Source of the DNA: Escherichia coli O157:H7
Lineage (GTDB): Bacteria; Pseudomonadota; Gammaproteobacteria; Enterobacterales; Enterobacteriaceae
Assembly: GCF_013167455.1 (NCBI RefSeq)
Contig: NZ_CP038328.1
Reading direction: 5' to 3' (one strand)
Length of the DNA stretch: 64,000 nt
Part shown: positions 1 to 4,982 of the stretch, one piece after another
Numbering within the stretch: position 1 is the first letter of the stretch
How the letters are laid out: each line of letters begins with the position of its first letter
Notes under the pieces: model-generated
What the model saw: the letters and a program-made list of their open reading frames with translations, nothing else
Database searches by the model: none
Told to the model about the DNA's origin: nothing
Made by a program: the position numbers and the translations under genes

Positions 1-333
1 TTCGGCACCGTCACCGAAGCGTTAGAACTTGATACAGCCAAGAATGGTTACATCCTCTTGGTTCAGGACGCAGAGCCAAACTTCGATGTAAATGGCAACT
101 CTCCGGGAACTCCGGATAGTTGGATAAGCTGTAGTGATCGAATGCCTGAAAAGGGCCAGAACGTGCTTATTTCAGTGAATTTCGATAGCTCTCTGGTTGA
201 ACCGCTAATATGCTCCGCACGCTATACCGGAAGCACCTTTCGGCGCGGAGATGCAACGATTAAGCCGGGTAATGGTATTGAGCAAGCAACTCACTGGATG
301 CCGCTACCGGAACCGCCGCAGGAGGTGAAGTGA
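1..333 (+). CDS. DUF551-like prophage protein, 5'-partial (reading frame is open to the window edge; track ORF 58..333 begins at TTG)
   Basis: Frame 1 has no stop from position 1; the product contains a W-I-S...SDRMPE motif typical of DUF551 prophage proteins; stop overlaps the next gene start (ATGA). Confidence 0.5.
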   Translation, partial: FGTVTEALELDTAKNGYILLVQDAEPNFDVNGNSPGTPDSWISCSDRMPEKGQNVLISVNFDSSLVEPLICSARYTGSTFRRGDATIKPGNGIEQATHWMPLPEPPQEVK

Positions 334-905
334 TGAACAACTTAATGATCGACCTTGAGACGATGGGGAAAAATAAGGATGCACCGATCGTTTCCATTGG
401 CGCGGTGTTCTTCACTCCAGAAACCGGAGACATCGGACAAGAATTCTATGCGGTTGTCAGCCTAGACAGTGCTATGAAGCAAGGAGCTACACCTGACGGC
501 GATACCATCCTGTGGTGGTTGAAACAAAGCCCTGAAGCGCGAGCTGCAATCTGTATTGATGATACTTTGTCGATCAGCGATGCTCTCTCAGAACTAAACC
601 ATTTCATTAACCGGCACGCAGACAATACGAAATATTTAAAAGTCTGGGGTAACGGGGCCACCTTCGACAACGTAATTTTACGTGGAGCTTACGAGCGAGC
701 AGGACAAATCTGCCCGTGGGCGTACTGGAATGACCACGATGTACGCACGATCGTTACGCTTGGGCGTTCCATCGGATTCGACCCCAAAATGGACATGCCT
801 TTCGATGGCGAACGGCACAACGCCCTGGCTGATGCCCGTCATCAGGCAAAATATGTTTCCGCTATCTGGCAGAAATTAATTCCTGCCACCAGCACAGAAT
901 TATGA
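330..905 (+). CDS. phage-type DnaQ-like 3'-5' exonuclease (about 190 aa)
   Basis: N-terminal MIDLETMG...PIVSIGAV is an Exo I motif of DEDD exonucleases; this size and context are common in lambdoid prophage early regions. Confidence 0.6.
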   Translation: MMNNLMIDLETMGKNKDAPIVSIGAVFFTPETGDIGQEFYAVVSLDSAMKQGATPDGDTILWWLKQSPEARAAICIDDTLSISDALSELNHFINRHADNTKYLKVWGNGATFDNVILRGAYERAGQICPWAYWNDHDVRTIVTLGRSIGFDPKMDMPFDGERHNALADARHQAKYVSAIWQKLIPATSTEL

Positions 906-914
906 TTTTCCCGG

Positions 915-1223
915 GTGCAGCCGGTTTTGATGGAGAAAATTATGAACACCTTGTTTTTACTGATGGCTGAATTCAATACCCCAAACATTGAACTCTCAGC
1001 AGTTAGCCAAAAGTACTTTGGTATGAGTCCAGCCACGGCAGAAGCAAAAGCAAACGCTTGTAAGTTGCCCGTTCCAACATATCGCATCGGCACATCACAA
1101 AAAGCAAAACGTTGCATCAATATTCAGGATCTTGCGGAATACATAGACAAAAGGCGAGAAGAAGGACGTATCGAGTGGGAACAGGTCAGAACAGTCAAAC
1201 AGAAGGGCAAAGAAAATCACTAA
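915..1223 (+). CDS. PrtN/excisionase-like small DNA-binding protein (true start may be an internal Met, MEKIMNTL or MNTLF)
   Basis: Product MNTLFLLMAEF...LPVPTYRIG resembles PrtN-family pyocin activator/excisionase-like proteins; followed by a strong hairpin. Confidence 0.45.
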   Translation: MQPVLMEKIMNTLFLLMAEFNTPNIELSAVSQKYFGMSPATAEAKANACKLPVPTYRIGTSQKAKRCINIQDLAEYIDKRREEGRIEWEQVRTVKQKGKENH

Positions 1224-1258
1224 AGAAAAAACCCGCCTGAAGGCGGGTTTTCAAAAAG
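1224..1258. terminator. intrinsic terminator hairpin (aacccgcctgaaggcgggtttt), potentially bidirectional
   Basis: Perfect GC-rich inverted repeat with flanking A/T tracts, between convergent gene sets. Confidence 0.55.
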
Positions 1259-1270
1259 CACCAGCTATGA

Positions 1271-1444
1271 TCATGCTGCTTTGAGACGACGAAGCTTACC
1301 CTGCTGCTCTTTACCAGAGACAGTAGCGTGAGTGAACGCATTAGGAGCAGCCTTCATCAGAACTTCAACAGCAGCACCCATACCTACGAATGCTTTCATT
1401 GTGTCGAACTTAACCTGTGGCTTGGTTGCTTTTTGATCTTCCAT
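1271..1444 (-). CDS. small hypothetical protein (about 57 aa), not in the ORF track
   Basis: ATG preceded by GGAG at 7 nt spacing; translation MEDQKATKPQVKFDTMKAFVGMGAAVEVLMKAAPNAFTHATVSGKEQQGKLRRLKAA; ends just upstream of the hairpin at 1224..1258. Confidence 0.3.
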   Translation of the reverse strand: MEDQKATKPQVKFDTMKAFVGMGAAVEVLMKAAPNAFTHATVSGKEQQGKLRRLKAA

Positions 1445-1483: not shown

Positions 1484-1903
1484 TTACTCATCATCAATAG
1501 ATGATACGCAATATTTATTTTTAAATTTAAGGTTCTTTGGCGTAACTTCATCAGAGATATCAAAACCGTCCAGAATTCTATTGAATGTAGCTTCTGGCAT
1601 ATCATCATGAACAGAAATCTCACCCGATCGCTGCTTTCTAACCATGTTATCCACTCGCCAAATTATAGCTTCAGCGTAAACAACATAACTTGGATGCTTG
1701 ATAAAGCGATGATCACCAGAATTCAAGACGCAAGACGGATCGTGGGGGACACCATCCTTGATACTAGAAATATTAACAACTAAAACACAATAACAATCGT
1801 TAACGGGGTAATAAACAGGATCATTACAAATCACATGAAGATGATTGCATGGTCCAGTTGGGGCAAGCACAGTTCCTTTCCTGTATGGCTGATAATCCGT
1901 CAT
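1484..1903 (-). CDS. hypothetical protein (139 aa), candidate toxin/effector partner of the upstream Panacea-like gene
   Basis: Start ATG overlaps the stop of the upstream gene (ATGA at 1900..1903); no recognisable family motif and no predicted TM segment. Confidence 0.5.
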   Translation of the reverse strand: MTDYQPYRKGTVLAPTGPCNHLHVICNDPVYYPVNDCYCVLVVNISSIKDGVPHDPSCVLNSGDHRFIKHPSYVVYAEAIIWRVDNMVRKQRSGEISVHDDMPEATFNRILDGFDISDEVTPKNLKFKNKYCVSSIDDE

Positions 1904-2472
1904 GATAATTGCAAAGAAAATTCCTTAAGTTTCTGAGATTCTTCCATTTTGCCAATTATGCGATTAGCCTCATCCTCGCTTTTACCCTCACTGATCAGCA
2001 TTTCTTTCAGGTCTATAGGCTTACGAGAATTGCCAGGATCGTGCCACTCTGGACAAACGCTTTCTAAATGCGTCATATTTGCGAGATCAAATCGGTTCAT
2101 ATGCCCATACCGAGAATAGATTTCATCTAAAATCCGGATATCTGCACGACTCAATTCATCAAAGACCTCGTCTGCATCCATTTCCCTCGGATCTGAACGC
2201 AACGATACATTATGCCCGTTCGTCTCTATCAAGTTGTACCAGTAGTCACCAATGCCTTCAGCCTTACCGCGAATCAAGTTCAGCGTATTCGACATGACTG
2301 GTCCAAATTTCATAGAGTAAAGGCTATCTTCGCCGATCATCCTGCCATGCTTCAAAATCGACTGGCGGTTAGACAGATAGAGCAGCTTCATCAATTTCAG
2401 ATATGCCATGCGCCCACCTCTCTTAAGAAGTAGGTATGCAGCCATTTGAGCTACTTTTTCTTCGCAAAACAT
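1900..2472 (-). CDS. Panacea (DUF4065; SocA/GepA-like) domain protein, candidate antitoxin
   Basis: N-terminal pattern YLKLMKLLYLSNR...SLYSMKFGPV matches the LKLQKLLYxA...GPV hallmark of Panacea/GepA phage-associated proteins (from memory, not searched); GAGG SD upstream. Confidence 0.5.
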   Translation of the reverse strand: MFCEEKVAQMAAYLLLKRGGRMAYLKLMKLLYLSNRQSILKHGRMIGEDSLYSMKFGPVMSNTLNLIRGKAEGIGDYWYNLIETNGHNVSLRSDPREMDADEVFDELSRADIRILDEIYSRYGHMNRFDLANMTHLESVCPEWHDPGNSRKPIDLKEMLISEGKSEDEANRIIGKMEESQKLKEFSLQLS

Positions 2473-3119
2473 ATAAGAAACCTCAAAGATAGTGAACTTT
2501 ATAATTATTCTCGATACTTCATGGGTTGCTTCATCACCAACATGAGCTTCTTATGGTGTGCCCACTTGGGCCTAAGCAACCAGTTACCTCGTTTGTCAAG
2601 TTTATAGCTGGCTTTAACCATGGTCAATTGAAGTGATGAGCAAATGATGCTTTCTAAGAATAACAGGTTCCCAATAGGCTCCCACAAAGTGCATAACTAG
2701 TTGTTTTTCAAAAACGGTACATCCTATCGAGCATTGGTGCAACGCTAAACCGACCACTCCAGTGAACGTCAGTTTTTTCAGGCATTGCGCTGGTTTGGTT
2801 GATTTTTTGCATTTCAGAATTACCGTGCATTTTCAAATGTAGAGATTATTTTATCGATATATCATGTGGTTATGTTATTCAGCATCACTGTTCAGGAGGC
2901 TCAATAACGGGGTACTATACCATAACAACAGGAAGCGCCTGTCTCATTGCAAAAGAAAATTGAGATCCTCTCAAGGCATGAAGCTCTCACGAAGTGAATA
3001 TCTAATCTTATTAGATGTTAGCGTTGTGAAAAGCAATGATAAACAATACAGATTCGACGATAAATAAAAATCACACATTAAACTCCGGTGATATCTCTCC
3101 CTGCTAATAGCACTGATAG

Positions 3120-3191: not shown

Positions 3192-4148
3192 TTATTTCTC
3201 CGATTTAACCCCGAATAAATCATAAATTAATTTAGAAGTGCCTGTATATATTTTAATCTTTTCCTTTGAGTTTGGGTCAAACGACTTAGCAAAGTCAATT
3301 AATTTCGGTGCAGCATCTCGCATTTTGCTTAAAATATCAGGGGCGAGCGTTCCTTCATTCACCAGATGTGACATCTTATCCAGATAGCCATCAAAATTCA
3401 TTTCTCCCCCATCTGCCAGACGCTTCATCTCTCCCAGGTACTTCTTCATATCACGTTGAGATAATTCTTCAAACTGAGCTTTCAGGTAGTTATCATTATA
3501 TTCATTAATATTCACTCTTCCTGCAAAATCTGAGTAGACACTAGAATATGAAAGGGAAATTAACAGCGAAGCAAATAATTTTAAGCTGTTGTCATCATGT
3601 TCCTGGCAGGCATTAACAAACGTTAAGAAACCAGAACCTATTGCTTGCAAATGTATATTCGCTAAAGGTTCATTATCTTTAGATTCCTCATAAAATAGCT
3701 GAACCGTGGAGGGAAGACCATTCTTGGTTTCTACATCAAAAGTACATCGTTCTATGAGTGTCGCATCTTTATTATCCTCGGGATTACATATACTATTAAT
3801 CGCGAAATGAAAAATAGCCCTGTCAACAACTGATGCAATAAATTCACGATCGTTTAATTCCTCATCAGTACAATCTCCAATATACTCATTGACACACATT
3901 TTGAGATCGTTTATTTGCTTAATTAACGTCACATTTTTTTCACGTGCAGTCCATAAATTATGAGTGATTCTTTGAATAAATAAATCTATTTTTGCAATAA
4001 TTATATCCCGATGACGCATCGTTGAATAATCAATAGATTTACCATATATACTATTTACTTTACCTTTGATTGCATCTTCATTATCGAATTGATTTGAATT
4101 GAGTGTTTTATTAAAGTATCCTGTTGCACCGGGTATTATCTTTAACAT
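3192..4148 (-). CDS. hypothetical protein, 318 aa, AT-rich; possibly the intact form of the yjbL+yjbM locus
   Basis: Long uninterrupted ORF with its own terminator and an AT-rich divergent promoter region shared with zur; no family recognised. Confidence 0.6.
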
Positions 4149-4466
4149 GATTCATCTACCTTTTTTGTCGTACCGTGTCCTCCTTATAAGTGTTTTTGGA
4201 ACCGGTAACTATCAAAAATCGCTCATAATTTTCTGAAATTCGGGTATACGATTAGCCACGGTTAAATAAATAGCGAGTTAACTTGAAGCAATTTATTTAA
4301 AAATGAATTATTAATTATTATCGTGTTGATAATGGTACTGCCAGGCAACACAACATCTTACCTACAAAACAGAAAAGCAACATTACGGCAACAATAAGGG
4401 TTCTCGGTGTTTTTCCTGGAACATGGTAAAGTAAGGACATTCTTAACCCCCACTTTGAGGTGCCCG

Positions 4467-4982
4467 ATGGAAAAGACCACAACGCAGGAGTTATTAGCGC
4501 AGGCTGACAAAATCTGCGCGCAGCGTAATGTGCGCCTGACCCCACAGCGCCTGGAAGTGTTGCGCCTGATGAGTCTGCAGGATGGCGCTATCAGCGCTTA
4601 TGATCTGCTTGATTTGCTGCGCGAAGCTGAACCGCAAGCCAAGCCGCCAACGGTTTATCGCGCGCTGGATTTTCTGCTTGAGCAAGGTTTTGTGCATAAG
4701 GTGGAATCCACCAACAGTTATGTGCTCTGCCATCTGTTCGACCAGCCCACCCATACGTCAGCTATGTTTATTTGCGATCGCTGCGGCGCGGTGAAAGAAG
4801 AATGTGCTGAAGGCGTGGAAGACATCATGCATACGCTGGCGGCAAAAATGGGGTTTGCCCTGCGGCATAATGTGATTGAAGCACATGGGCTCTGTGCGGC
4901 ATGCGTGGAAGTGGAAGCGTGTCGTCATCCTGAACAGTGCCAGCATGATCACTCTGTGCAGGTGAAAAAGAAACCGCGTTAA
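4467..4982 (+). CDS. zur: zinc uptake regulator Zur (Fur family)
   Basis: Product MEKTTTQELLAQADKICAQRNVRLTPQRLEVL... recognised as Zur; GAGG SD upstream; start is the internal Met of track ORF 4407..4982. Confidence 0.9.
   Translation: MEKTTTQELLAQADKICAQRNVRLTPQRLEVLRLMSLQDGAISAYDLLDLLREAEPQAKPPTVYRALDFLLEQGFVHKVESTNSYVLCHLFDQPTHTSAMFICDRCGAVKEECAEGVEDIMHTLAAKMGFALRHNVIEAHGLCAACVEVEACRHPEQCQHDHSVQVKKKPR

Follow-up and report, generated by a model that had tools for sequence, protein, structure and literature searches.

The question raised by this locus is whether two small overlapping genes at the end of a prophage in Escherichia coli O157:H7 form a toxin-antitoxin (TA) or anti-phage module of a kind that has so far escaped description. 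The genes lie close to the start of a 64,000-nucleotide (nt) window on contig NZ_CP038328.1 (RefSeq assembly GCF_013167455.1), the window being the whole stretch of DNA that was analyzed. An initial annotation had proposed that the first gene encodes an antitoxin with the Panacea (DUF4065) domain, and that its partner of 139 amino acids (aa) represents a new toxin family. The reading that we favor, with a probability of a little over four in five, is that of a type II PanAT module of the toxin cluster T6, in which a stand-alone Panacea antitoxin (PanA) is coupled to its toxin (PanT) and which is carried close to the attachment (att) site of an inducible Stx1a prophage.

The two proteins and toxin cluster T6

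The pair is encoded on the minus strand and is laid out as follows.

1900..2472, minus strand: panA, 190 aa, ATG start, from the list of open reading frames (ORFs)
1484..1903, minus strand: panT, 139 aa, ATG start, from the ORF list
1900..1903, minus strand: ATGA, the stop/start overlap of panA and panT, read from the sequence and pointing to translational coupling
1868..1870, minus strand: GTG taken as the panT start by RefSeq and the Prokaryotic Genome Annotation Pipeline (PGAP), giving a 128-aa product, WP_014640052.1; a probable misannotation

The 190-aa protein, which RefSeq names "Panacea domain-containing protein" (WP_000458584.1), matches the Pfam model PF13274 (SocA_Panacea) over model positions 1-109 of 113, with an E value of 3.7e-19 and 70.2 bits. 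The motifs from which a Panacea antitoxin had been suspected, YLKLMKLLYL and FGPV, occupy residues 24-33 and 56-59, and the domain as a whole spans residues 27-137. An N-terminal accessory domain is absent, and at the other end of the protein there is a conserved C-terminal extension of ~50 residues that ends in a long helix (about residues 166-190).

For the 139-aa protein, the profile libraries of Pfam, NCBIfam, and PADLOC hold nothing meaningful, and its sole library match is an uncharacterized PHROG, phrog_19071 (E 3.4e-31). Its family is a large one: when 1.84 billion cluster representatives were searched by profile, 2,694 relatives were found at E <= 0.001. No fewer than 2,694 clusters at the 50% identity level make up the family, for which neither Pfam nor NCBIfam has a model. 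Kurata et al. (2022, PNAS 119:e2102212119, PMC8832971) described 88 toxin clusters paired with Panacea. One of these, T6, shows in their Dataset S1 an antitoxin-then-toxin order with -4 or -1 junctions in hosts such as Proteus, Pluralibacter, Pantoea septica LMG 5345, Yersiniaceae strain 2016Iso4, Salinivibrio socompensis S35, Methyloprofundus, Beggiatoa, and others, and it is to T6 that they assigned their validated pair from Pseudomonas moraviensis BS3668. A scan of species-representative genomes with the alignment of the 139-aa family recovered P. septica LMG 5345, strain 2016Iso4, and S. socompensis S35.

The validated toxin itself can be traced through its cloning primers, which encode the termini MPGNIL... 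and ...IRQNNF (PMC8832971). These termini were not found among the first 251 PanT-family proteins retrieved. The PanT homologue of Pseudomonas phage Sirocco (48% identical) is accompanied by a PanA whose first ten residues, MIFSEQKVAQ, are those that Kurata et al. added back to the PanA of P. moraviensis (PMC8832971), and a search with the Sirocco toxin led to a P. moraviensis protein (P0286 in our set; SDU72800.1) whose termini are exactly those encoded by the primers. In the assembly GCA_900105805.1, its gene lies directly 3' of a SocA_Panacea gene and has the published -1 junction. Assembly, neighbor, junction, and primer-encoded termini together confirm, at the level of sequence, that P0286 is the validated toxin WP_083201923.1. 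BLASTP aligns the E. coli PanT with it at 43% identity over 120 aa (E 6e-34), and the two PanA proteins with each other at 44% identity over 183 aa (E 3e-49).

By homology, the 139-aa protein is a member of cluster T6, and what had seemed an unrecognized partner belongs to a described and validated toxin family because it is homologous to the T6 PanT of P. moraviensis. In the published experiments, that toxin arrests the growth of E. coli and is neutralized by its PanA, with which it forms a stable complex in pull-downs; it specifically inhibits the incorporation of 35S-methionine, i.e., translation, and its neutralization requires neither ClpXP nor Lon (PMC8832971). If the E. coli pair behaves in the same way, PanT would block translation as a putative endoribonuclease acting on mRNA, tRNA, or rRNA, probably by means of an invariant His21 and a conserved Asp55/Cys58/His65 loop. 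PanA would mask PanT by direct binding, possibly through its conserved C-terminal helix, and in the lysogen the module might act in prophage-borne defense, superinfection exclusion, or stabilization of the prophage.

The part of the initial annotation that concerns the first gene has held up well: both ORFs and their overlap by ATGA are present on the minus strand, and the Pfam search that it had proposed for the 190-aa protein found the Panacea domain. Its view of the partner gives way on two points, in that the supposedly unrecognizable new toxin family has the T6 homologue described above and a recognizable predicted MazF/Kid fold by the Foldseek comparison that it had itself suggested, and in that the system it took to be undescribed belongs to a family that was described and, in its P. 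moraviensis member, experimentally tested in 2022.

Pairing, coupling, and the transcription unit

The coupling of the two genes turns on where panT begins. The PGAP start at GTG 1870 would abolish the ATGA overlap and place the first residue of the product at V12; in an alignment of 25 PanT homologues, P6 is nearly invariant and G10 is invariant, and both are N-terminal to that point. Across related loci, the panA/panT junction is ATGA (-4) in 9 of 15 cases and TAATG (-1) in a further 2 of 15, whereas three have gaps of 1-2 nt; overlapping junctions make up 11 of the 15. Because the residues before the GTG are conserved and the same type of overlap recurs in related loci, we judge that the ATG at 1903, and not the GTG at 1870, is the true start of panT and that the coupling is real. 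The public annotation of the gene is inconsistent on this point, with a single database cluster containing both 128-aa and 139-aa versions.

Kurata et al. used as their FlaGs criteria a two-gene architecture with a spacing of at most 100 nt that is conserved in at least two species. The E. coli pair falls within these bounds: in each of the 16 informative loci outside the genus, the gene immediately 5' of the toxin homologue encodes a PanA homologue, with a spacing of -4 to +14 nt, a pairing that is far beyond chance. The two proteins also diverge in parallel (PanA 38-86% identity, PanT 43-87%). Comparison with the Pluralibacter and Kosakonia orthologues gives a nonsynonymous divergence (dN) of 0.09-0.12 with saturated synonymous sites, the signature of strong purifying selection on both genes. 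When the proteins were modeled by AlphaFold2 as a fused PanA-(G4S)6-PanT chain with 15 paired sequences, the predicted template modeling score (pTM) was 0.83; by the predicted local distance difference test (pLDDT), the C-terminal helix of PanA (166-190) scored about 90 and the disordered linker about 30. This model weakly suggests a docked PanA-PanT complex. As a separate observation, an identical Proteus toxin (the cluster of P0017) appears in GenBank as AYY81064, AYY81154, and AYY82117, accessions that share a prefix and may represent several copies of the module in one Proteus genome.

The surroundings of the two genes contain the following candidate signals and one further ORF.

2481..2484, minus strand: GAGG, Shine-Dalgarno-like, 8 nt 5' of the panA ATG; read from the sequence, with a presumed role
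2599..2627, minus strand: TTGACC-17-TAAACT, a weak sigma-70-like site upstream of panA with 9/12 matches; a candidate promoter only
1271..1444, minus strand: 57-aa ORF directly 3' of panT (WP_000390073.1), from the ORF list and RefSeq
1227..1252, minus strand: strong intrinsic terminator with an 11-bp stem, 6 GC pairs, and a T-run

The region holds four sigma-70-like sites as against 5.2 expected from shuffling, a number that is not above chance, and neither an operator-like palindrome nor a convincing promoter above chance was found in the panA upstream region. The terminator is the likely 3' end of the panA-panT transcription unit, and the 57-aa ORF may be co-transcribed with panT. As a third gene of the module this ORF was rejected: apart from the identical phage, no PanAT locus in the comparison gave a tblastn match to it.

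The prophage end and possible roles of the module

The DNA of the locus is 100% identical to that of E. coli O103 RM8385, and the induced phage Lys8385Vzw (MT225100) has the same sequence; in this phage, the pair and the integrase flank the phage attachment site, attP. Lys8385Vzw is an inducible Stx1a-converting phage that integrates in dusA, and the paper that describes it makes no mention of a TA module (Zhang et al. 2021, PMC7946995). On the chromosomal side of the pair, the window shows the following features.

2726..2830, minus strand: displaced 5' remnant of dusA, with the prophage/chromosome junction (att site) extending to ~2833; from the RefSeq partial coding sequence and blastn
3192..4148, minus strand: DUF2713 gene, a 318-aa ORF that corresponds to a frameshifted DUF2713 pseudogene in the RefSeq annotation of RM8385
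4407..4982: zur, beyond the dusA remnant and the DUF2713 gene relative to the pair

In a blastn comparison of the window, identity to the free phage stops at about 2833, in the displaced dusA remnant, and panA-panT lies ~360 bp inside this end of the dusA-integrated prophage. The initial annotation had placed the pair at the junction of a prophage fragment and the core gene zur. The prophage end is indeed there, but what ends at this point is an intact inducible Stx1a phage rather than a fragment, and the dusA remnant and the DUF2713 gene stand between it and zur. The 318-aa ORF has no NCBIfam match at E <= 1e-5. On the other side of the pair (window positions 1-1240, as annotated in the identical RM8385 DNA), the prophage encodes a DUF551 protein, a 3'-5' exonuclease (330..905), and a PrtN-family, pyocin activator-like protein (915..1223), all on the strand opposite to panA-panT.

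The pair was found in 207 of 5,426 complete E. coli genomes (about 4%), among them Shiga toxin-producing E. coli (STEC) O103 and the enterotoxigenic (ETEC) strain H10407, and it is always chromosomal; in 205 of the 207 carriers it is full length. Homologues are present in temperate phages of Escherichia, Yersinia, Klebsiella, Vibrio, and Pseudomonas, and the positions that they occupy in prophages elsewhere are varied: those of Pantoea adjoin the repressor, those of Citrobacter and Xenorhabdus are close to tail genes, and those of Serratia have primase, methylase, and lysin genes around them. In S. socompensis S35 (locus L013, 3430-5812), the pair directly precedes a full-length dusA (NCBIfam DusA, E 8e-166), which ties it to the dusA integration hotspot outside E. 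coli too, in a distant genus. The pairs of Enterobacter sp. and P. moraviensis are bare islets flanked by core genes. panA-panT behaves as a mobile cassette that moves among unrelated positions, and not as part of the conserved structural or replication genes of a phage, the outcome that the initial annotation had itself named as speaking against its proposal; the coupled antitoxin-then-toxin module on prophage cargo DNA that it expected is what the comparisons bear out.

Two further phage loci deserve separate description. In Pseudomonas phage Sirocco (Peduoviridae; locus L019, 929-3388), the pair is found together with a 139-aa ORF, hydrophobic by eye, just before the portal gene. P2-like phages hold variable defense cargo in such a pre-portal position. 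Escherichia phage PhiR5_2 (PV340546.1; locus L023, 1528-2052) has a PanA homologue, 40% identical, without a toxin, and the next gene is a convergent ibrB. This orphan PanA could be a counter-defense gene directed at the PanT toxins of hosts.

The function for which such a cassette is selected may be anti-phage defense or superinfection exclusion, in which an incoming phage would perturb PanA as a sensor, free PanT, and cause the lysogen to abort. We regard this as a possibility, at well below an even chance. It draws on the position of the pair in the free phage, next to the integrase and attP, where cargo classically lies; on the spread of the cassette among chromosomal islets and unrelated places in prophages; on its occurrence in temperate phages of the five genera named above; and on the phage with an orphan PanA and no toxin, as would be expected of an anti-TA gene. 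It is also in line with Ernits et al. 2023 (PMC10440598), who propose a sensory role for Panacea and tie TA networks to defense. On the other hand, a genomic location is suggestive only, the PADLOC-DB v2 defense models give no family at E <= 1 for either PanA or PanT, and published phage-protection data for T6 pairs were not found in the literature.

A role in addiction or stabilization is an unlikely alternative: once the prophage was excised or lost, the main effect of the module would be post-segregational killing of the cell or arrest of its growth. The layout of the genes, that of a classic type II system, would suit such a role, as would their place at the extreme end of DNA that can excise and the full-length state of the pair in nearly all of its E. 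coli carriers (205/207). However, neutralization in PanA-type pairs is independent of Lon/ClpXP, which makes the usual logic of a labile antitoxin a hypothetical one here, and the occurrence of the pair as a bare islet between core genes also speaks against it.

Predicted fold, possible chemistry, and relation to known systems

The AlphaFold2 model of PanT, computed from a 126-sequence alignment, has a pLDDT of 95.6 and a pTM of 0.89 and presents a soluble five-strand beta-barrel followed by three helices, in agreement with the earlier claim that the protein has no membrane segment. All of the top 50 Foldseek matches to this model are MazF/Kid chains, with probabilities of up to 1.00, and the best structural matches are all endoribonucleases. 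The predicted fold is clearly a MazF/Kid/CcdB-like, SH3-like barrel, and the model independently confirms the label "EndoA/PemK/MazF" that had been given to the T6 toxin via HHpred (PMC8832971). Among the 126 diverse relatives, H21 is invariant, and L22, V43, D55, C58, G63, H65, F67, S72, Y76, G113, and S117 are conserved in at least 90%; the E. coli protein keeps every nearly invariant residue of the family. The catalytic pair of MazF is Arg29/Thr52. Judged by eye from the pattern of strands, H21 would lie near the position of Arg29 and S46/S47 near that of Thr52.

Several observations weigh against an account of PanT as a MazF-like translation toxin held in check by PanA. In a Pfam scan, PF02452 (PemK_toxin) matches 0/126 members of the PanT family; hhalign of the family against a MazF profile made from E. 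coli-type MazF homologues gives a probability of 0.2%, a weak negative given how narrow that profile is (>= 58% identity); and PDB sequences searched with the family profile (hmmsearch) yielded chance matches only. Because the fold matches but no sequence link was found in these searches, we file PanT as a MazF-fold protein and not as a member of PF02452, and we infer its putative RNase chemistry from the fold and from the phenotype of the homologue. Toxicity and the block of translation are known from the P. moraviensis homologue and are predictions for the E. coli pair. Moreover, the partners of the phage-borne T1 PanA cluster of E. coli and Salmonella were not toxic (PMC8832971), for which reason toxicity cannot be assumed for every PanA partner. 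Lastly, docking of the two proteins is a tentative deduction from the pTM of the fused model.

An extended form of the T6 reading would have a MazF-fold toxin, with a His and an Asp-Cys-His loop replacing Arg/Thr, serve abortive infection or superinfection exclusion on the Stx1a phage, with Panacea sensing the incoming phage and the orphan PanA of PhiR5_2 acting as counter-defense. We offer this combination tentatively, as a possibility with the odds against it.

It is decidedly doubtful that PanT has the MazF/CcdB fold without being an RNase, whether as a gyrase poison like CcdB or as an enzyme that directs His/Asp/Cys/His chemistry at a component of translation. Such a view would accommodate the missing sequence match to PemK/MazF models and the conserved H21, D55, C58, and H65, which differ from the Arg/Thr pair of MazF. 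It sits poorly with the finding that the 43%-identical homologue inhibits translation and not replication or transcription, and with the fact that the closest structures are endoribonucleases without exception. Still less probable is that the pair is inert in E. coli, either non-toxic or decayed in the manner of the phage-borne T1 pairs. The PanA partners of E. coli MOD1 and Salmonella phage Emek are indeed non-toxic, but T1 is a different cluster, and membership of our pair in it was rejected, Emek being detected by neither the PanA nor the PanT search; in addition, the E. coli toxin retains all the nearly invariant family residues, both genes are under strong purifying selection, and the T6 representative is toxic in E. 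coli itself. A SocAB-like type VI mechanism, with PanA as a ClpXP adaptor that delivers the toxin to the protease, was rejected as highly improbable, for although SocA has the same domain and the NCBIfam SocA_antitoxin equivalog (NF047745) gives PanA a weak match (E 0.022), this match scores 14.4 bits where the cut-off requires 190, SocB bears no relation to the partner, and the P. moraviensis pair is neutralized without ClpXP or Lon in a direct complex (Kurata et al.).

With the T6 assignment, a gene that is listed in RefSeq as a "hypothetical protein," with the wrong start codon, acquires a name and a likely function, and a TA module is placed by the attachment site of an inducible Stx1a-converting phage. 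Such a module could affect the stability and induction of the prophage and the resistance of the lysogen to other phages, which is of practical interest for the ecology of STEC. The module does not constitute a new class: work published in 2022 already covered the domain, the way in which the genes pair, toxin cluster T6, and its phenotype.

Among the known systems, the SocAB type VI TA system of Caulobacter crescentus has an antitoxin with the same Panacea/DUF4065 domain and is otherwise different, in that SocB blocks the replication clamp and is unrelated to PanT, and in that its mechanism is that of a proteolytic adaptor. The PanAT of E. coli STEC O31 (PanT WP_000019185.1) and the T1 pairs of MOD1 and Emek are likewise Panacea-based and found in E. 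coli or its phages, yet their toxins are unlike PanT, the first being a small membrane-depolarizing peptide (T3) and the second a non-toxic predicted "mRNase." With MazF, Kid (PemK), and EndoA (PF02452), PanT shares the fold in its model and, by way of its homologue, the translation-inhibiting phenotype. It differs from them in its sequence (8-15% identity), its extra C-terminal helices, its conserved His/Asp/Cys/His residues in contrast to the Arg29/Thr52 of MazF, and its partnership with a Panacea antitoxin in place of MazE, Kis, or PemI. The PanAT of P. moraviensis BS3668 (PanT WP_083201923.1/SDU72800.1; PanA WP_083354365.1) corresponds to the E. coli pair in its antitoxin-first order, its overlapping junction, and a PanA without an N-terminal accessory domain, with the 43% identity of the toxins and 44% of the antitoxins extending over essentially their full length. 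The differences between the two lie in the details: the junction is -4 (ATGA) in E. coli and -1 in P. moraviensis; the N-terminus of the E. coli PanT is 7 residues longer, and the protein has a short acidic tail; the loop residues G63/D64 of E. coli are E/C in P. moraviensis; and the carrier is a dusA prophage in E. coli, whereas the P. moraviensis pair occupies a chromosomal site that is not part of a phage, with yggX on one side and metabolic genes on the other.

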